DNA from: an uncultured Alphaproteobacteria bacterium
Lineage (GTDB): Bacteria; Pseudomonadota; Alphaproteobacteria; Rhizobiales; Hyphomicrobiaceae
Length of the DNA stretch: 64,000 nucleotides
Direction of reading: 5' to 3'
Assembly: GCA_963831345.1 (NCBI GenBank)
Contig: CAWHPZ010000039.1
Span: forward strand, 33,118-97,117
In this document: in pieces, positions 20,196-29,909 of the stretch
Numbering within the stretch: position 1 is the first letter of the stretch
Layout of the letters: every line of letters begins with the position of its first letter
Program-made: the position numbers and the translations under genes
Notes under the pieces: generated by a model
What the model was told of the DNA's origin: nothing
Databases searched by the model: none
What the model saw: only the letters and a program-made list of their open reading frames with translations

Positions 20196-21706
20196 ATGGT
20201 CTTTTCTCCGTCCCTGCCGCCGTCCGGATTGTCTCAATCCGCATCACTCGACGACGCCCTCCGCGTTCCGAGGCTCGCGGACGTACGCCCGGGGAGCAAG
20301 GCGCGGCTCATCCCGCCGGCCGTGCTGCGCGGCATGGCCCGCCTTTCCGATTTCACCGTTGCTGCCGGGACGGGTCTCGGCGTCGCCGCCAGCGCCGCCA
20401 TAAGCCCGGCCGAGGTGCCATTCTACTTGCTCGCCATCGGCTCCACGAGCGCGGCCATGCTCATCTTCATGCAGGTGCTTGGGCTCTATTCGACTGACGT
20501 TCTCAAGGCGCCGCTGCTGCACCTGCCGCGCGTCGTGCTCGCATGGGTCGCAACGATCACGATTTTGGCCACGGCCATGCTCGCCGTCAGCGCGACCCAC
20601 GAGGCGAGCCGGATCTGGCTTCTCGTCTGGTTCGGCGTGGGGGCCGTTGGTCTCGTCGCGGGACGGCTTGCGGCGGGGCGGATGGTGAGGGGCTGGGCGC
20701 TGGCCGGCCGGCTGTCGCGGCGCGCCGCCATCTATGGCGGCGGCGACATCGCCGAGGACGTGTTGCGCCGTCTCGAGGCCGAGCAAGCCTCCGATATCCG
20801 CATCACCGGCGTTTTCGACGATCGGCAGGATGGGCGGACGCCCGATGCTGTCGGCGGCTATCCGCGACTCGGCACTCTCGAAGCGCTGATCGCGAAAGGG
20901 CGCGAGACGCGGCTCGATCTCGTCATCGTGGCGCTTCCGGCCGCAGGAGAGAAACGGCTCGCAATGGTCGCCGAGAAGCTGTCGCAACTGCCGGCCGACA
21001 TCCGCCTGCCGGCACGAGCCACGAGCTCAGGCTGTCGCCGCGGCTCTACTCTCACATCGGGCCGGTGGCGATGATCGATCTCTACGACAAGCCGATCGCG
21101 AACTGGGATTTCGTCATCAAGTCGGCCTTCGACAAGATCGTCAGCGCGCTGGCGCTCATGCTTTTCTCGCCGCTGATGCTGGCGATCGCCCTGGCCATCA
21201 AGCTCGATTCGTCCGGACCGATCTTCTTCCGGCAAACGCGCTATGGCTTCAACAACGAGCCCATCGAGGTTCTGAAGTTCCGCTCGATGTATACGAACGC
21301 CGCGGACGTAGCCGCCGCGCAACTCGTGACCAAAGGCGACGCGCGCGTGACGCGCGTCGGGCGCTTCATCCGCAAGACGAGCCTCGACGAGCTGCCGCAG
21401 CTGTTCAACGTTCTGAGAGGGGATCTGTCGCTCGTCGGGCCGCGGCCGCATGCGCCGGCGGCAAAAGCTGACGACCGCCTCTACACCGATGTGGTGTCGC
21501 ATTACTTCGCCCGGCACAAGGTGAAGCCGGGGATGACGGGCTGGGCCCAGGTCAACGGATGGCGCGGGGAAACCGACACGAGCGAGAAGATCGAAAGGCG
21601 GGTCGAGCACGATCTTTATTACATCGAGAACTGGTCGGTGCTGTTCGACCTCTACATTCTCGCGCTGACGCCGCTCGCCCTGTTCAAGACCGAAAACGCT
21701 TATTGA
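20196..21706 (+). CDS. Undecaprenyl-phosphate hexose phosphotransferase, WcaJ/WbaP family (UppE-like); frameshift near 21020
   Basis: Four N-terminal TMs, [47 protein letters not shown]. Confidence 0.93.
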
Positions 21707-21753
21707 TACGGGGCCTCGCTGCTTGATGCCGGCCCAGGCCAAGCAAGAAAGCG

Positions 21754-21855
21754 CTATGAGAGGCGAACCATTACCTTGACCAATAGGGCGAGGGCCGGTC
21801 CGAAGACCGCCACAAACGACAGCACAAGCGCCAAGGTCATCGACATATCGAGCAT
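21754..21855 (-). CDS. 33-aa hydrophobic small protein (not in ORF track)
   Basis: Reads MLDMSMTLALVLSFVAVFGPALALLVKVMVRLS*; GAGGG upstream; single TM-length hydrophobic stretch. Confidence 0.5.
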   Translation of the reverse strand: MLDMSMTLALVLSFVAVFGPALALLVKVMVRLS

Positions 21856-22027
21856 TACGCCCGGTGCCCTCGAGTAGATCACGGGCTGCGACAATCGCAC
21901 GCTCCGTCACGCACCGGACGCACTGGGCAGAAACAAACTCGGCCCGGTTCAGATGCTGAAGCACTGTACCAGGGCCGGGTGTGAACTCAATTTACCGAAG
22001 AGTATAGCGGCGGGATTTACCGGCGTG

Positions 22028-22507
22028 TCAGGCTGCCGCGTGCGCGCCCGGAGCAAAGCTCTCACCGGCCGTCTCGAGCGCCTCGCTTACAGCGCGTGCG
22101 AGCTTGTGCGGGTTAAAGCCCCACTTGACGTTGAGGCGCATGCCGGCTGCGATCTCGAGTGTCTTCACCACAGCCTCCTGACCATGGCTTGCTATGAGCT
22201 CGCTGATACGACGCGACTGGCAAGCTTCCATGAGGCTGCGGAAGCGCAACAGAACGGCGACCTTGCGTTGACGGCCGCGGCGCGAGATCTGCCAGAAGGC
22301 CTGTTCGACGCGGCGGAGATCTTCATCCGAAAGAGAGACCGAGGGGAGCAGCAAGCCGCGTCCCGAGAGCATCTTGAGAGCGAGAGCAAGCTCACGCGCA
22401 CCTACGCGCGGAACATCGCTGGTATCGAGTGCGGCCAGGGTGTCGCTGCGATCCGCAGCCTCAGAGCCGTTCGATGAAACTGGTGTCGCTGAAGACATCG
22501 TGGCCAT
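22028..22507 (-). CDS. Hypothetical protein
   Basis: 159-aa ORF with GGAG RBS, 5 nt after the cold-shock-like gene. Confidence 0.7.
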   Translation of the reverse strand: MATMSSATPVSSNGSEAADRSDTLAALDTSDVPRVGARELALALKMLSGRGLLLPSVSLSDEDLRRVEQAFWQISRRGRQRKVAVLLRFRSLMEACQSRRISELIASHGQEAVVKTLEIAAGMRLNVKWGFNPHKLARAVSEALETAGESFAPGAHAAA

Positions 22508-22512
22508 GGCAA

Positions 22513-22746
22513 TCAGCTCCGCTTACCAAATGTTTTTTTGTGGGCGAAAGCGCCCCAAGGAGATCCATGCAACAAGACAATGTCTCTCGGCTTACGTGAT
22601 TCGATCAGGAAGTCCACGTCGAGTCCGACCAGCTTTCCATTCGGATTGCATATCTCAGACGCCGAGAAGCGGAATTTCTGTCCGTCTTCGCTACGGATAA
22701 CGCCGAAGCCGATATCGTCGCGAAACTTGGTGATATGTCCCTGCAT
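22513..22746 (-). CDS. Divergent cold-shock-domain (OB-fold) protein
   Basis: MQGHITKFRDDIGFGVIRSEDGQKFRFSASEI resembles the CSD RNP1/RNP2 pattern; GGAGA RBS. Confidence 0.7.
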   Translation of the reverse strand: MQGHITKFRDDIGFGVIRSEDGQKFRFSASEICNPNGKLVGLDVDFLIESRKPRDIVLLHGSPWGAFAHKKTFGKRS

Positions 22747-22817
22747 GTCGTTCTCCAACTCATGTGGACCTCGTCTGGCCCGTTGAGTGGAGCTTCCCAC
22801 GACACGCTTGTTTGCTC

Positions 22818-22833
22818 AGTTCCCCAAGTCACA
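22818..22833 (-). promoter_or_regulatory. Crp/Clr-like box, copy 1
   Basis: TGTGAC-TTGG-GGAACT, then 21 nt, then GAAGCT (22796-22791). Confidence 0.55.
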
Positions 22834-22902
22834 TTGAACGAAATTTCGCTCCCGCCGTCCAGCGGTCATGCGCATGGTAAACAAGGGTCAAACAAAATTA
22901 AC

Positions 22903-22934
22903 AGGGGCCGTGTCTCTCGCGAGACCCAGCCCCT
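22903..22934 (-). terminator. Hairpin after the periplasmic adaptor gene
   Basis: AGGGGC..GTCTC-TCGC-GAGAC..GCCCCT stem with T-rich sequence downstream on the minus strand. Confidence 0.55.
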
Positions 22935-23010
22935 ATTGATTTAGTTAGACAGTGATGGCGGCAAAGCCAGGGCAAGAACGCCCGTTTTCCGTCGAGGTGG
23001 ACGATCTGTC

Positions 23011-24045
23011 TCAGTCTTTACGAAAAAAGGCGTCTACCCGCATCCCCGGCAAAAGCGGCGACGTCCCTTCCAGATCGATCGTGACTTCCATGACCTCGAC
23101 GTCATTGGCGCGGCGCGGACCGCGCGGGTTGATCTTCGCCTGTCCCAGCGTGGGAGCGAGACGCGTGACCTTGCCTTCGAAATCCTTGCCGGGATGGCCA
23201 ATAGAACGGATGAAGGCCTTCTGACCGAGCTTGATCTTGGCCACGTCAACGTCGTCGACCTCGGCCTTGACGCGAACCACGCTCATGTCACCCATGACGA
23301 CCAGGGGCTGCTCGGGCGAGGGCGCGACGACCTCGCCCTGCTTGGCATTGAGCTCGAGGACTGTGCCAGGCGACGGGGCACGGATGCGGGTCTTGTCGAG
23401 GAGCGCCTCGGCCATGCGCACTTCGGCGCGTGCGGCGCTGACGGCGGACTCGGCGCGGCTCGGCGCCGGCAGGTTGGGCTTGGTCTGCGCCTTGACGAAG
23501 GCGACGCGCTCGCGCTCCAGGCGGTCGTTGGCTTCCTTCAAGCGGCGGCGCGCTTCGGCAACGGAAGACTCCGCTGCCGCTGCCGCGTGCGCTTCGCTGC
23601 CAGATGCATAGTCGAGCTCGATGCGTGCACCCGTGACGGCGCGCTCCGCGGAATAGATGGCGTCCTCGGCCTTTCGCACGTCCTCGCGGCCGGAAGCGAA
23701 AGCCTTCTCGCGATCTTCGCGAAGCGCTTCGGCCTCGGTCTCGGCAGACGCCAGCTTGGCGCGGGCTTCGGAGTCGTCGAGGCGGATGAGCAGCTCGCCC
23801 TCCTCGACCTTGTCCTCGACGCTGACGAGAACCTCCCCGACGCGACCGAGTAGGCTCGTGCCGAGATGGATCTCGCCGGACTTCGGCTCGACCCTGCCCG
23901 GCGCGGCAGCGACCCAGTCGATGACTTCGACGGGAGCCGCCGGCTCCTCGGTGTAGGCCTTGCCGACGTTGTATTTATCGAAGGCGACATAGCCGACAGC
24001 GCCGGCCACGGCCAATAATGTGATGAGGTTCGTCCGGGAAAACAT
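23011..24045 (-). CDS. Efflux periplasmic adaptor (HlyD/MacA/DevB-like)
   Basis: N-terminal TM, AAPGRVEP, lipoyl halves, coiled hairpin, IRAPSPGTV, PGMRVDA. Confidence 0.9.
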   Translation of the reverse strand: MFSRTNLITLLAVAGAVGYVAFDKYNVGKAYTEEPAAPVEVIDWVAAAPGRVEPKSGEIHLGTSLLGRVGEVLVSVEDKVEEGELLIRLDDSEARAKLASAETEAEALREDREKAFASGREDVRKAEDAIYSAERAVTGARIELDYASGSEAHAAAAAESSVAEARRRLKEANDRLERERVAFVKAQTKPNLPAPSRAESAVSAARAEVRMAEALLDKTRIRAPSPGTVLELNAKQGEVVAPSPEQPLVVMGDMSVVRVKAEVDDVDVAKIKLGQKAFIRSIGHPGKDFEGKVTRLAPTLGQAKINPRGPRRANDVEVMEVTIDLEGTSPLLPGMRVDAFFRKD

Positions 24046-24059
24046 GGCGCGTCTGGTCC

Positions 24060-24860
24060 TTAGGCTACGGCTGTGCTGGATGAATTGGGTTTGGCAGCGG
24101 GGGTTCCGTGTGGCTCGTGGCCGCTGGTCCAGCCCCTGGCTATGCTGCCGTTGGGCCGTTCGTCGGCGACGATCAGTCCGTCCTCGATGCGAATGATGCG
24201 GTCGGCATAACCGAGCGTGCGGTGGTCATGGGTCACGGCGAGCACGGCACGAGAGGGATCTTGCGCGACCTCGGCGAGAAGCTCCATCACGGCCTTGCCG
24301 TTCTCGCTGTCGAGAGCGGCCGTCGGCTCGTCGGCGAGAATGACCGAGGGCCTGCCGGCGAGCGAGCGCGCAATGGCGACACGCTGCTTCTCGCCGCCCG
24401 AGAGCTTCGAGGGATAAGTGTGCATGCGATGACTGAGGCCGACCGCCCGCAGGGCTTCTGCCGCCGTCTCGGTGGGGTCGGATGACCTCGCATCGCGGAC
24501 ATCGAGTGCGACGAGCACGTTCTCGAGCGCGGTCAGCGTCGGGAACAGATTGTAGCTCTGGAATACGAAGCCGACGTGCTGGCGGCGGATATCGGCAAGG
24601 CCTTCGGCCGAAAGGCCGACGGCCTGGTTGCCGGCAAGATTGAGCTTGCCGCTGGTGGCAGTCAGGATGCAGCCGAGGATGGAAAGCAGCGTGGTCTTGC
24701 CGCTGCCCGAGGGGCCCATCAACAGCGTGAGCTCGCCGGGGCGGAGGTCCATGCTGACGCCCTTCAGGATGCGCAGGATGCCTGCGCCCGTACCGATGGA
24801 CTTCACGATATTAGTCGCCTCGATAACAGGTGGCGCGGGCGACTTGGCCGGTGCGGTCAT
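24060..24860 (-). CDS. ABC transporter ATPase (MacB/LolD/DevA-like)
   Basis: GPSGSGKTT, GFVFQSYNL, LSGGEKQRVAIAR, ILADEPT, VTHD. Confidence 0.95.
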   Translation of the reverse strand: MTAPAKSPAPPVIEATNIVKSIGTGAGILRILKGVSMDLRPGELTLLMGPSGSGKTTLLSILGCILTATSGKLNLAGNQAVGLSAEGLADIRRQHVGFVFQSYNLFPTLTALENVLVALDVRDARSSDPTETAAEALRAVGLSHRMHTYPSKLSGGEKQRVAIARSLAGRPSVILADEPTAALDSENGKAVMELLAEVAQDPSRAVLAVTHDHRTLGYADRIIRIEDGLIVADERPNGSIARGWTSGHEPHGTPAAKPNSSSTAVA

Positions 24861-24931
24861 TGGTAAGATCTCCCTTAGTGCGTGCAAATTAGCAGATGCT
24901 GCGGAGAATGGATCATTTCGAGTTCGAGCGC

Positions 24932-24947
24932 TGTTCCGCGTGACACA
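24932..24947 (-). promoter_or_regulatory. Crp/Clr-like box, copy 2
   Basis: TGTGTC-ACGC-GGAACA, then 21 nt, then CATTCT (24910-24905). Confidence 0.7.
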
Positions 24948-25140
24948 TCAGGCTCATTTTTGTTGGATGCGGGGAAGTTTCCTGAAGCACAAAAAGCGCT
25001 GCGGCGGCCGCTTCAAGTTGACGCTGGAATGGCTGGAAGCTCCCGCGTTTTTTCTCGTCATCCTTACTTCCTCGAGATGCGCGAAGCGCATCATGATTTG
25101 ATCGACGTCTACCGCGTCAGGTATTCGGCTAAACTGCCGA

Positions 25141-25170
25141 GGCCCGGAGGCGGGTGAACCGCTCCGGGCC
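25141..25170 (-). terminator. Strong hairpin after the ABC permease
   Basis: GGCCCGGAG-GCGG-GTGAA-CCGC-TCCGGGCC. Confidence 0.55.
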
Positions 25171-25197
25171 TTACGGCTTTCAGACTCTCGACGGTCC

Positions 25198-26405
25198 CTA
25201 CCGGTTAAAGACGCCCGCAGGGTCAATTCTTGTCACCTTGAAGATGGCCGTTATGGCGGCGAAAACGCACATCCCAACCGTCAAAGCAAACAAATAGGCG
25301 GCCAGCTTCGGCGTCATCAGGATCGTCAGCGTCGCGCTCTTCGACGCCAAGCCGTAGATCACGAACAGCGCCAACGCCATGCCGAGGATGTAGCCGATCA
25401 CGGCGCTCAACAGCGCCTGGATCAGGATGACGGCGTGGATGTAGCTCGCCGAGGCACCGAGGGCGCGCAGCGTCGCGAACTCGTTCAAGTGATCCTTGGT
25501 GCTGGCGTAGAGCGTCTGCGCCACGATGACGACGCCGACGATGATGCCGAGGGCGGCACCCATGATGAGCGCAGCGCCGGCACCCGTGTTGAACATCCAG
25601 TAGTTGAGGCTGCGAGCGCGGAACTCTTCGTGCGTCAGAACTTCCGTGTCGGGGAGCCGCTCAATAAGGCTTGCGCGCACGGACTCGAGGTCGGCGCCGG
25701 GGGCTACAGTAACCAGCTCGTAGGTCGCCTGCTCGGGGCCTGCGCTGAGTCAACTGTCGTGCACGCGAGATCGGCATGAACACATAGGGCAGCGTCGTGA
25801 ACGAGCGGATGGCCGATGTCACCGCCGTGACGTGCACGCGCTGGCCGTTGATCTCGGCGTTGGCGCCGATGCCTTCAATGCCGAGATCCTTGAAGTAGGA
25901 TTTGTCGACGGCCACGGCAGCGGGAGCCGAGAGATCGGCGACCGTGCCTTCGACAAGGTTCCAGGGCAAGGTTCCGCCATTCAAATAGTCGAGGCCCACG
26001 AGTACGAAGGCCTTCTTTCCGCCCTCCGGGTTTGCGCCAGGACGAGAAGCTCACGACCATGTCCTCGACGCGCTGAACGCCCGGCGTCGACAGCGCCGCA
26101 TACTTCTCACGGCCCGTCATCAGCGACGGATCGTCGAAGCTCTTGGTGCCGATGGGGACGATCCACAGGTCGGCCTTGGCCTTGTCGAGCACGGTCGCGA
26201 TCTTGCTTTCGGAGCCGAGGTAGAGGCCGCACTGGATGGCGACGAGCACGACCGAGAACACGATGCCGATCAGCGTGACGAACAAGCTCATGCGATCATG
26301 GAAAAGATTCCGGTAGGCGATCTTGGGCGCCATCTTGATCTTCTTAACCGGACCGCCCTGGGCCGCCACGGCCGCGGGAATATTCACACTTTTCATGGCC
26401 GTCAT
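25198..26405 (-). CDS. ABC permease, MacB/FtsX (DevC-like) family; frameshifts near 26030 and 25750
   Basis: IAYRNLFHDR, TLIGIVFSVVLV, periplasmic domain, QTLYAST..EFATLRALGA, RIDPAGVF. Confidence 0.9.
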
Positions 26406-26499
26406 TTCCGTCTCCAAACCGCACATCTCTTTGTGCGCCGAACTCCCAGTGCCGTCCAGCGAATCACCCGCGTGCGGCACTACGCTTCGAATATCGATA

Positions 26500-27104
26500 T
26501 TAATCGCCGCAAGAAACCGAGACCGTGATGCCGATCGCGGGAATGAACTTCTTGCAGTTAAGCTTTTTGTCGGACGAAGCGGTCTTCACTTCATCCTTCT
26601 TGGGCTCGTCCTTCGTCTCGTCCTTCTGGGCTTCGACCGGCGCAGTATCAGCCGAGGTTGACGTTTCGGTGACCTTGGCCGGCTCGTCCGTCTTCGTCGG
26701 CTCGATTGCTGCCGTCTGGGTCGTCTGGCTCGCGGCAGTAGCCTGGTTGGCCGTGTCGATCAGGGCGGTGCTGCCGCTCGAGGACGTGGTGCTGGTCGAA
26801 GCCGAGGTCGTCGTCGACGCGGTTTCCTTAGATTTCTTGCTCGCTGAAGACGTCTTGGAAGGGGCGGCCTCCTCGGCCTTGGCGACACGCGCTGCCTTCT
26901 TGGCGGCGGCAGCCTGACGGCCTGCGGCCTTGCGTGCGTAGACGTCGCCATAATCAGCGCCGCCTCCACGAGAGGGGGTCGCTGTGAAATTGCCAAGCGG
27001 CAAACCGAAGTTGAGGCGCACGCCGCCGCCGGCGTCGGCGGCAGTCGCAGAGAACGTCACGGCCGCTGCGATCACTGTCGCGATGGCGATAATTTCGGGG
27101 TCAT
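26500..27104 (-). CDS. Secreted low-complexity protein A with C-terminal Cys motif; frameshift in an A run just after the start
   Basis: GGAGAG RBS; restored MTPKIIAIATVIAAAVTFSATAADA signal peptide; S/T/A/K/E-rich linker; ends CKKFIPAIGITVSVSCGD. Confidence 0.8.
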
Positions 27105-27211
27105 TGGAGCTCTCCGATTTCTGTTCCGCCTGAAGGCGGTTTTCAATCCACTGTTCGAGGACGATCTTCCTCGGTTCATGGCGGAGATTGCCGAAGTTCG
27201 CCCTTCAACGC

Positions 27212-27227
27212 TGTTCCGGGTGGGACA
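27212..27227 (-). promoter_or_regulatory. Crp/Clr-like box, copy 3
   Basis: TGTCCC-ACCC-GGAACA, then 21 nt, then CAATCT (27190-27185). Confidence 0.75.
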
Positions 27228-27273
27228 AAGAAAAATTATTCGAACGGCTTTGCGCGGAAGATCGAGCGCCCGC

Positions 27274-27307
27274 AAAAGAAAACGCCGGGCTCTGACGGAG
27301 CCCGGCG
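27274..27307 (-). terminator. Rho-independent terminator after secreted protein B
   Basis: CGCCGGGCTC/GAGCCCGGCG stem followed by TTTTCTTTT on the minus strand. Confidence 0.85.
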
Positions 27308-27338
27308 CACATTCGAGGATGAGAACTTTCGTTGGAGA

Positions 27339-27951
27339 TCAGCAGCCGACCGTGACTGCAACTCCGAGAGCCGGAACATATTTCTTGCATGTCGCCGGGG
27401 CGGGCTCTTCGGCCTTAACCTCGGCCTTTTCGGCCAAGGGTAGCAGTGGACGTCGGAACTTCGGCAGTTGCGACAGTATCGGTCGCGGTTTCGGTCTTTG
27501 CCGGCTCGGTTGTGTCGCGGCGGTCGAACTTGCCGGAGATGTCGGCCTGAGTCAGGGCTGCCGTGCTCGAGGGTGCAGCGACATAGGTGCTTTCGCCCTT
27601 CTTCGCGGTGTCGTTGTCGGCGGTCTCGTCTGCGTTCTGCTCGGAGGGGTTCTCAGCTTTCTCGGCCTTGGCGGCGGCAGCCTTCTGAGCTGCGATTTCC
27701 TGCTGGCGGCGAGCGGCGGCGACTGCCTTCGCCTTGGCGCGGGCTTGAGCCTGAGCTTCGGCACGTGCACGGGCGCGGGCCCGGGCTTCCTCAGCCTTTT
27801 GCGCCTGCTGGGCCTGGTGAGCCATGACGCCAACGGCCAGAACGCCGAGGCCAATTCCAAGTCCGCGGTTACCTGCCTGAGCGGCGGGCGTAATTGCCAT
27901 GCTGGCTGCGACCGTGGCGGCGATCAAAGTGATGCTGAGCTTCGAGGCCAT
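27339..27951 (-). CDS. Secreted low-complexity protein B with C-terminal Cys motif; frameshift near 27438
   Basis: Signal peptide ending AAQA; Ala/Gln/Lys helix and T/E linker; shifted frame gives AEKAEVKAEEPAPATCKKYVPALGVAVTVGC* just before the terminator. Confidence 0.8.
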
Positions 27952-28050
27952 TTTCGTCTCCATCCTCAAAAACAAGTTCTCAAACCGTTGAGCCTGGGCT
28001 GCGCCCCGACTTGCTTGAGAAGAAGAATGCCAGAATGCCCCTCATCCGCC

Positions 28051-28066
28051 TGTTCCTGCTGGAACA
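28051..28066 (-). promoter_or_regulatory. Crp/Clr-like box, copy 4 (perfect palindromic arms)
   Basis: TGTTCC-AGCA-GGAACA, then 21 nt, then CATTCT (28029-28024). Confidence 0.8.
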
Positions 28067-28214
28067 AGGCGCAGAAAATCGAGCGGACGAGGAAAATTCT
28101 CGTCCGCCCGCCAGTCCGCGCGCGGCAATGCGATATGATGTAAGTATCTGTAATTGCTAGACATAACCGCGCTCCGGCATGGGCTGTGGTGTGTCCATTA
28201 CTTATGCGGCCTGC

Positions 28215-29078
28215 TCATGCGGAGGCCACACGCGGAAATCTAGCATAAGCCTCGGCATTCCGCACACCTGCATTCAGCACACTGGAGATCATGCCGATGA
28301 AGGAGGACGTGCGGTCGAGAACGATGTGGCGCTGCCGATCGACCGTAACCATGTGATAGCAGTCATCGAGGACCACGAGGTCGACCGGCCCCGCGAGCTT
28401 GTTCTGCAGGTAGTTGGCGTTGTCGAGACCGGCATAGTCGTCCTCGCGCGCATGCATGATGAGAACCGGCTGACGGATGCTGCCGAGCAAGCCCATGACA
28501 ACCCGCGCCAAGCGGTGACGCTCGAGAACGGCGCCGCCCGGGGTCTTGATCTGGGTCGGAGCGCCCTGCCCCACCTTGGTGGCATTGCGGACGAACTCGC
28601 GGATGCGCTGATCCTTAATGCCGACGTGCATCGGCACCGGGAACTTGAACATGTTGGCGATGGCTTTGCTGTTGATGCAGCGGAACAGCGGCACATACCA
28701 GGGAACCTTGCGGCCGCTCAGCCACAACGTGGGCGAGTAGAGCGTCACGCCATCAATCTTCTCGGGATGCTTGGCTGCGAGCATCAGGCTCAGCACGGCG
28801 CCGGTGGAAAGGCCGCCGATGATGACCCGGTCACATGTGGCGCGGAGCTCGAACAGGGCCTCCTCGGCGCTGCGATACCAGTCCTGCCAGGTGGAGGCCT
28901 GAAGATCGGCCTCGCTGCCGCCGTGACCGGCCAGTTGCGGGCACAGTACGGTCATGCCCTCGCGGGCCAGCCCGTTGGCGACATAGCGGATCTCTGCAGG
29001 CGAACCGCACAGTCCGTGGATCAAAAGCACGCCCGTGCGTCCGCCTTTGATACGATAGCTCGCGTCGTTCACCCTCAT
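28215..29078 (-). CDS. Alpha/beta-hydrolase carboxylesterase (YvaK/Est30-like)
   Basis: LLIHGL, LAGHG, nucleophile GLSTG, AREDD, YHMVTVD. Confidence 0.88.
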   Translation of the reverse strand: MRVNDASYRIKGGRTGVLLIHGLCGSPAEIRYVANGLAREGMTVLCPQLAGHGGSEADLQASTWQDWYRSAEEALFELRATCDRVIIGGLSTGAVLSLMLAAKHPEKIDGVTLYSPTLWLSGRKVPWYVPLFRCINSKAIANMFKFPVPMHVGIKDQRIREFVRNATKVGQGAPTQIKTPGGAVLERHRLARVVMGLLGSIRQPVLIMHAREDDYAGLDNANYLQNKLAGPVDLVVLDDCYHMVTVDRQRHIVLDRTSSFIGMISSVLNAGVRNAEAYARFPRVASA

Positions 29079-29139
29079 GACACATCCCTGCTTGCCGAAA
29101 TCCATGCGGCCGAAGGTAGGTCAGCAAGAAAAGTGCCGC

Positions 29140-29155
29140 TGTTCCTGCAGTTACA
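29140..29155 (-). promoter_or_regulatory. Crp/Clr-like box, copy 5
   Basis: TGTAAC-TGCA-GGAACA, then 21 nt, then TACCTT (29118-29113). Confidence 0.7.
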
Positions 29156-29261
29156 TGGGCGGGATATTCGCCGCGAAGTGCGCGCGAAGGCGCGGATGTG
29201 CTGCCGGCCTAGGGTGGGACAGGGTTGGACGTAAACCTTATTGCCCGGTGCGCGGAGCTAG

Positions 29262-29358
29262 TTTAGAGTTAATCTAAGGTAACTTTTTCTAGCGACTTTT
29301 GTGCGGGTCAACGGCCCGGTGCGCAGTGCCCTAGTAGCTACCTTAGAATTATTCTGAA
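29262..29358 (+). promoter_or_regulatory. Two Irr-binding ICE-like boxes upstream of bfr
   Basis: TTTAGAG-TTA-ATCTAAG (29262-29278) and CTTAGAA-TTA-TTCTGAA (29342-29358) versus TTTAGAA-N3-TTCTAAA. Confidence 0.65.
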
Positions 29359-29416
29359 TGAGGCTGAATTTCTGGAGCGTGCCCGAGTTGCCGCTCCACG
29401 CTTGAAGGGGACTGAA

Positions 29417-29909
29417 ATGAAGGGCACCAAAGAGGTTATCGAGATACTCAATGCGGCGTTGAAGCTCGAATTGGGTGCCGTCAACCAGTACTGGCTGCAT
29501 TACCGCATGCTCGAGAACTGGGGCTACACGAAGCTCGCCAAGAAAGAGCGGGCCAGAGTCCATCGAAGAGATGCAGCACGCCGACAAGCTCGTGACGCGC
29601 ATCATCTTCCTCGAAGGCCTGCCGAACCTCCAGCACGTGGCGCCGCTCATGATCGGCGAGAACGTCAAGGAAGTGCTGGAATGCGATCTCAAGGGCGAGA
29701 AGATCGCGCATGAGACCTACATCCGCGGCCGCGACATCTGCCGGGACGCCAAGGATTACGTGACCATGGATCTGTTCGAGGAGCTGATCAAGGACGAGGA
29801 AGGCCACATCGACTTCATCGAGACGCAGCTCGATCTCATGGCGCAGATCGGCAAGGAAAACTACGGCCAGCTCCAGGCCGATTCCGCCGACGAGTTTGGA
29901 AGCCACTAA
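29417..29909 (+). CDS. bfr: Bacterioferritin; frameshift near 29552
   Basis: [44 protein letters not shown]. Confidence 0.95.

Follow-up and report, generated by a model that had tools for sequence, protein, structure and literature searches.

Why do two secreted proteins encoded side by side end in the same short, cysteine-bracketed tail, and what has this tail to do with the export pump encoded directly downstream? The question is raised by a stretch of 64,000 nucleotides from an uncultured Alphaproteobacteria bacterium (assembly GCA_963831345.1, contig CAWHPZ010000039.1, positions 33,118 to 97,117), which is called the window here and to which all coordinates without a contig name refer. 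On its minus strand the genes follow in the order alpha/beta hydrolase, protein B, protein A, and then the permease (in three pieces), the ATPase and the membrane-fusion protein of an ATP-binding cassette (ABC) pump. The answer that we favour, with a probability of about 0.4, is that the tail forms a hairpin which would be the handle by which the linked pump recognises Sec-exported proteins in the periplasm and drives them outward.

A C-terminal tail shared by proteins A and B

Protein A ends in CKKFIPAIGITVSVSCGD, directly followed by the stop codon, and protein B, when its end is read from the open reading frame (ORF) one frame over, has the C-terminal tail CKKYVPALGVAVTVGC, likewise followed by a stop. 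The C-x14-C spacing is the same in both tails, and a 24-position tail profile searched against the whole genome recovered the two proteins with E values of 2.6e-13 (A) and 8.5e-11 (B); the resemblance is not due to chance. A first-pass annotation, made from the letters of the window, had described this common cysteine motif and had held that a frameshift hides the copy in B. Both statements stand, the second because three intact orthologues of B end in the tail, which is thus the true end of the protein. The genome-wide motif search that the annotation had suggested was run in six frames, and revealed five C-terminal copies in this genome: those of A and B, one in a 165-residue protein on contig 35, and those of a TPR protein and a DUF2147 protein on contig 27. 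The last two are encoded side by side and far from the pump (L001:1446-3298, G000:C27); the DUF2147 protein ends in CTYRIPYVGRTVSVPCRN and the TPR protein in CRRFLPSAGVTVVVDCPK.

Apart from the tail, A and B had been regarded as unalignable, which was not upheld. The succession of signal peptide, Gly-rich hydrophobic stretch, Ala/Lys/Arg helix, STAL island, acidic Thr-rich linker and tail is kept in 27 A homologues and 17 B-type proteins, in agreement with the common architecture proposed at first, and A and B are, judged by their sequences, distant paralogues of this one architecture. Three islands are conserved among the 27 A homologues, namely GGGVRLGFGxPLGxFTATP right after the signal peptide, TGSTALIQ, and the tail itself. 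The STAL-type island, [GSP]S[ST]A(A)L[ILTM], lies at 26765-26785 in A and at 27535-27560 in B. In the set used for tail statistics (80 tail ORFs from 60 loci) it was found in 16 proteins, compared with 0.7 expected from shuffles; these belong to several unrelated N-terminal types and to some genera only, and the island stands 20-52 residues ahead of the tail (34-52 residues in 15 of the 16). As a universal second element of the module it was rejected, being present in just these 16 of 80 tail proteins.

Consensus, passengers and predicted fold of the tail

The consensus of the 80 tails is C-[KR]-[KR]-[FY]-[IVFL]-P-[AS]-x-G-x-T-[IVL]-[ST]-V-[PG]-C, which covers 16 residues and is followed by 0-3 residues before the stop codon. 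Positions C1, [FY]4, [IVL]12 and C16 are invariant, P6, G9, T11 and V14 are kept in 90-96%, and 58 of the tails have a net charge of +2. According to a hydrophobicity heuristic, 78 of the 80 proteins have a Sec-type signal peptide. Its end reads AxA followed by Gly in 56 of these 78, compared with 66 of 382 control ORFs (17%), where the cleavage is predicted and the control is a crude one. The proteins that carry the tail comprise the A type, the B type, two N-terminal types with additional cysteines, TPR proteins, Sel1 proteins (461 and 795 residues) and DUF2147 proteins. The tail is a modular element on otherwise unrelated proteins that are predicted to be Sec-exported.

In the two N-terminal types with additional cysteines, the extra residue stands right after the signal peptide (AQA-CISCEYVPEV and A-G-C-G-G), and the proteins have an odd number of cysteines or a second cysteine pair. 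They are encoded at loci L051, L058, L063 and L086; L033, L034, L047, L070, L074 and L088; and L002:2640-3137. Lipoprotein status was considered for the ACISCE and AGCGG types and rejected, as no lipobox precedes the N-terminal cysteine.

In the AlphaFold2 model of an A-type protein, an N-terminal hairpin (pLDDT, the predicted local distance difference test score, of 78) is followed by a long disordered part and a C-terminal hairpin (strands E173-178/E183-188, pLDDT 81-84). The model of an intact B-type orthologue has one helix of ~80 residues (pLDDT 93-98), a disordered part and the hairpin (E189-194/E199-204, pLDDT ~80). In both modelled tails the strands are antiparallel and the two cysteines are opposed at the ends of the hairpin. 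The earlier proposal of a disulfide-closed beta-hairpin agrees with these models and with the invariant cysteines at both ends as far as the hairpin is concerned; the C1-C16 disulfide itself we infer from Sec export together with the DsbA-like genes and DsbB genes that are present in this genome.

Distribution of the tail

Within the family that includes Hyphomicrobium, the tail profile matched 59 of 121 genomes, in 27 of 51 genera, with 1-7 copies per genome. It gave no match in 292 genomes from 60 further families of the order (E<=1e-4), nor in 350 from further families of the class (E<=1e-3). Over the genomes so covered, the tail is confined to the family that holds Hyphomicrobium. When 50-residue tails were searched against a library of 1.84 billion representative proteins (E<=0.001), 508 clusters with the tail were obtained. 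In ~6% of the best 150 library representatives the hairpin is internal or present in two copies; the module thus does not require a free C-terminus. One subfamily (P0034, P0053, P0104 and P0136; L090:9657-10149) has one or two internal hairpins of the form CRHYVPxAGxTIxVxC and ends in a different Cys-bracketed motif of ~25 residues, C..L.R..L......DL.......C.

That the tail belongs to no named family, as was stated at first, was confirmed. Searches of A and B against Pfam and NCBIfam gave low-complexity noise matches only, the tail matched just unnamed 'hypothetical protein' clusters in the ESM Atlas, and no description of the motif was found in the literature on MacB/DevBCA secretion signals and on Hyphomicrobium MacB.

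A pump paralogue paired with the tail genes

In related genomes, A homologues sit between the hydrolase and B genes on one side and the genes of a MacB_PCD/FtsX permease, an ATPase and an adaptor on the other. In the window, the DevC/MacB-type permease gene (25198-26405, minus strand) is split into three frames and is colinear with intact orthologues; those downstream of A homologues have PF12704 and PF02687 and are 392-405 residues long. The DevA-like ABC ATPase of the pump is encoded at 24060-24887 and its DevB/HlyD-like membrane-fusion (periplasmic adaptor) protein at 23011-24045, both on the minus strand. Against NCBIfam, the pump scored 155.1 with TIGR01185 devC (cut-off 290.35), 236.9 with TIGR02982 DevA (295.8) and 88.6 with TIGR02971 DevB (129). 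DevC, DevA and DevB are the best-scoring named families, and by these scores the pump is not a member at the curated cut-offs. One TolC-like OEP-repeat gene was found in this genome (G000:C38:133735-134910), and its product is a candidate duct for the pump.

An orthologous permease was present in 37 of the 60 tail loci. Where the permease was complete (32 loci), the end of the nearest tail gene was 46-709 nucleotides (median 159) upstream of it on the same strand, and in every locus examined the first copy of the tail-linked pump had a tail gene directly upstream. Two permease paralogues differ in score: a widespread one (404-440 bits), found in nearly all genomes of the family, and the tail-linked one (at least 470 bits), found only in this family. 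Over the 121 genomes, tail and linked pump are both present in 52 and both absent from 53, while 7 have the tail only and 9 the pump only. In all nine pump-only genomes, a divergent C-x14-C tail, of which CRKFSAAIAGLIDVPC and CKKYFPSVGEMVAVPC are examples, was found at the end of the ORF that immediately precedes the pump upstream. Furthermore, in five genera (g6, g18, g32, g37 and g40) congeners with or without the pump differ likewise in all tail genes, dispersed ones included. In the fragmented assemblies G055 and G089 tail genes are present, and the linked pump was looked for and not found. The pump type is a known one, whereas no description of the tag, of its restriction to one family or of its pairing with a dedicated pump paralogue was found in Pfam, NCBIfam, the ESM Atlas or the literature searched.

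The hydrolase (28215-29105, minus strand), which has no signal peptide, is the kept upstream neighbour of both pump paralogues. By gene order, hydrolase and pump seem to be an ancestral pair, into one copy of which the tail genes were inserted. At the loci of the widespread paralogue L108:4401-9227 (G040:C3) and L109, a DUF2147 gene lies on the opposite strand, between hydrolase and pump. Second copies of the tail-linked pump were seen at L097 (G080:C61) and L098 (G104:C157); their adaptor gene is divergently oriented, and upstream of them there is no tail gene. Genes for polysaccharide export adjoin the locus in Hyphomicrobium.

Possible roles of the hairpin

MacB-type pumps expel a few periplasmic proteins (STII, dispersin/CexE). 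To our knowledge, no recognition signal has been defined for such pumps, and their choice of substrate is an open question. In the reading that we favour, A and B would be exported by Sec as largely disordered envelope proteins, each ending in a 16-residue mini-domain, and the Dsb system would oxidise the two invariant cysteines in the periplasm, giving a locked, cationic (+2) and amphipathic beta-hairpin. This hairpin would be coupled functionally to the dedicated DevBCA/MacB-type tripartite pump paralogue encoded directly downstream of A. The periplasmic part of the pump would recognise it, and ATP-driven mechanotransmission would move the tagged proteins to or through the outer membrane via the TolC-like duct, a two-step route like those of STII and MacAB or of CexE and Aat. 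Recognition by the pump and export are the steps that we infer.

A wider claim, that tail and pump paralogue make up an unrecognised sorting system, is advanced as a doubtful one. The tail would then be a transferable, disulfide-locked C-terminal signal that directs up to seven Sec-exported proteins per genome, TPR, Sel1 and DUF2147 proteins included, to the outer membrane or the cell surface. If true, this would give MacB-type pumps their first secretion or sorting signal defined by sequence. The 16-residue candidate signal comes with a consensus, natural cargoes, a dedicated pump paralogue and natural pump-loss lineages, and could be tested in culturable Hyphomicrobium.

Several points weigh against recognition and export by the pump. 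The TPR and Sel1 passengers, folded solenoids of 312-795 residues, are too large for a TolC duct once folded, and the internal and tandem hairpins in ~6% of representatives are more in keeping with a binding module than with an export signal at the terminus. Genus g9 (four genomes) and genome G107 keep one or two tail genes with the linked pump absent or decayed. Additionally, the widespread pump paralogue is accompanied by the same hydrolase gene and by a DUF2147 gene that lacks the tail, and no tail gene is found there, so the ancestral pump probably moves something other than tail proteins. Finally, neighbouring genes are lost as a unit and related genomes do not count as independent cases; the shared presence or absence of tail and pump therefore overstates their functional dependence.

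The main rival, which we hold to be somewhat unlikely, is that the hairpin stays put as a docking or anchoring module and binds a fixed component of the envelope, tethering A, B and the TPR, Sel1 and DUF2147 proteins to it. The outer membrane's inner leaflet or lipopolysaccharide, peptidoglycan, acidic exopolysaccharide, and the pump or its adaptor are possible partners, and the pump would export another substrate, for example a lipid or glycolipid as DevBCA does. Docking would suit a hairpin that is cationic (+2 in 58 of 80 tails) and amphipathic, that is found on folded scaffold-type domains (TPR, Sel1) and that has internal and tandem copies, and the single 80-residue helix and disordered linker of the B type resemble envelope tethers. 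The tail genes that persist without the pump in g9 and G107, the widespread paralogue that keeps its hydrolase and DUF2147 neighbour without a tail gene, and the polysaccharide-export genes that adjoin the Hyphomicrobium locus point in the same direction. However, docking by itself leaves unexplained both the tail gene upstream of the first linked-pump copy in every locus examined and the absence of dispersed tail genes from pump-less congeners, and its ligand is still only a candidate. If docking were true, the tail would be a new envelope-tethering device in Alphaproteobacteria, useful as a portable tag, and would still help to annotate the ~500 'hypothetical protein' clusters.

It is improbable that the hairpin is a polymerisation tag, joining by beta-strand addition or intermolecular disulfide swap to build an envelope or matrix layer of A/B-type subunits to which TPR, Sel1 and DUF2147 proteins attach: exactly two invariant cysteines per tail, the added cysteine that the AGCGG and ACISCE types have right after the signal peptide, the further conserved N-terminal hairpin of mature A-type proteins and tandem arrays of 2-3 tail genes would be in keeping with it, whereas the predicted fold puts both cysteines opposite each other inside one hairpin.

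Comparison with known systems

Recognition and export of tail proteins by the linked pump, the reading we prefer, has partial parallels in known systems. The MacAB-TolC pump of E. coli exports the heat-stable enterotoxin STII, which is Sec- and DsbA-dependent (PMC5985334). Common to both are a MacB-superfamily permease (MacB_PCD and FtsX) and a periplasmic adaptor and, both as candidates here, a TolC-type duct and a substrate that reaches the periplasm via Sec and is disulfide-closed before the pump would act (PMC5985334). In contrast to MacAB, the ATPase here is a separate polypeptide, as in DevCA, and the pump is a lineage-specific paralogue; the candidate substrates, of 139-795 residues, have a common defined tag, and one substrate gene adjoins the pump.

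CexE, a substrate exported by the Aat system of enteric E. coli, has a glycine conserved at its N-terminus (PMC7943197). Like Aat with its substrates dispersin and CexE, the present locus combines a dedicated MacB-like pump and a protein that is small, cationic and Sec-exported, and the N-terminal glycine left by signal-peptide cleavage there (PMC7943197) may have a counterpart here in the predicted AxA-G ends of 56 of 78 tail proteins. The two differ in that no outer-membrane factor gene is present at our locus, whereas Aat substrates have no C-terminal Cys hairpin. No AatD-type (Lnt-like) acyltransferase was found at the locus, and the genome search gave a single Lnt (C41, split) and no second one. 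Similarly, DevBCA-HgdD, the cyanobacterial exporter of heterocyst glycolipid, shares the permease, the separate ATPase and the adaptor, and supplies the nearest named families. However, all three subunits score under the cut-off, the substrate of DevBCA is a lipid, and tail proteins are not known there.

The tail also resembles the C-terminal sorting tags of PEP-CTERM/exosortase, GlyGly-CTERM/rhombosortase, LPXTG/sortase and the C-terminal domain (CTD) of the type IX secretion system (T9SS). Those too are short, lineage-restricted C-terminal modules on unrelated Sec-dependent proteins; each genome has several cargo genes, one of them adjoining the machine, and tag and machine have matching distributions. 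Instead of a protease or transpeptidase, the partner here would be an ABC pump. No transmembrane helix or basic cluster follows the motif, since just 0-3 residues are left after the second cysteine, and a sortase- or exosortase-type tag was rejected for want of such a helix. The PEP-CTERM, GlyGly-CTERM, LPXTG, MYXO-CTERM and other curated models of Pfam and NCBIfam gave low-complexity noise only.

Arenicin, tachyplesin and thanatin are cationic beta-hairpin peptides with a single disulfide, and type IV pilins have a C-terminal disulfide loop. The likeness of the tail to these is one of shape, a short, positively charged, amphipathic hairpin or loop with one disulfide; they are free peptides or part of the pilin fold, whereas the tail is an appendage of large exported proteins.

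Frameshifts in the assembly

In the assembly, protein B is divided between two frames. Its body (27439-27951, minus strand) starts with the ATG at 27951 and consists of the signal peptide, a Gly-zipper-like hydrophobic stretch, a long Ala/Arg/Lys/Gln helix, the STAAL island and the linker, after which the assembly frame continues to what is very probably a false stop at 27415. The displaced C-terminal piece, a 32-residue ORF one frame over (27339-27437, minus strand, stop codon included), has the hairpin CKKYVPALGVAVTVGC at 27342-27389; it is an intact open frame with all motif residues. The one-base excess was placed at 27436-27440 (minus strand), where the plus strand has a GGG run and the gene strand ACCC. 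Reading ACCC as one step (GGG run 27438-27440) fuses the two pieces into a protein of 203 residues (P0001) that is colinear with its orthologues, and tblastn with an intact orthologue as query put the frame change between 27422 and 27439. B orthologues are intact in three Hyphomicrobium assemblies and end in CK[KR][YF]VPALGVAxVGC directly at the stop.

Comparison with the proteins of one Hyphomicrobium genome with intact B revealed six frame changes in ~9.6 kb (20300-29900), one each in a ferritin-family gene, B, A and a sugar transferase gene and two in the permease gene. The frameshift of A lies in the signal peptide and had not been seen in the first-pass annotation. The assembly reading of A runs from a GTG start (26500-27075, minus strand), with the hairpin CKKFIPAIGITVSVSC at 26509-26556 followed by GD and the stop. 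Its true 5' end would be at 27076-27104 (minus strand); there the T run at 27093-27095 has one base fewer than in relatives, which puts the ATG at 27104-27102 out of frame. The closest A homologue, P0002, begins with MTPKIIAIA, and a matching start needs one more base in this T run. In three or four independent metagenome runs, the contigs of related strains have an extra T behind 27092 and are one base shorter at each of 25744 and 26022, both in the permease gene, and the net length difference of relatives' contigs across B is -1 modulo 3. Related-strain contigs were used for this comparison, the best public runs sharing 0.47 of the sampled words of the stretch.

The genome has 4.36 Mb in 42 contigs with a completeness of 74%, and its Lnt gene is also split into two frames (G000:C41:134096-135338). 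Given six frameshifts in ~9.6 kb, one of them in the signal peptide of A, together with this completeness, the shift in B is most likely an assembly error, and the frameshifts in A, B and the permease gene are in all probability assembly indel errors and not biology. It is improbable that B is a genuine pseudogene in this strain, with a real frameshift and an end at 27415 without the tail: the base call rests on the assembly and the public runs share just that fraction of words, which would leave room for it, whereas the frameshifts extend to the ferritin-family, sugar transferase and permease genes (the last twice) and to the signal peptide of A, Lnt is split in a genome of limited completeness, the displaced tail remains open with every motif residue, and the relatives' contigs differ in length across B as stated. 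The assembly is indel-rich, and apparent pseudogenes elsewhere in this genome are suspect and should not be taken at face value.

Transcription of the locus

A strong intrinsic terminator was found 3' of the B tail (27282-27308, minus strand), with an 11-bp stem that includes 9 GC pairs and is followed by a T run. A second strong terminator (28080-28110, minus strand) lies between the hydrolase gene and B. With terminators on both sides, B looks monocistronic. In the terminator scan of the window none was found in the interval between A and the permease gene, and A appears to be co-transcribed with the pump genes.

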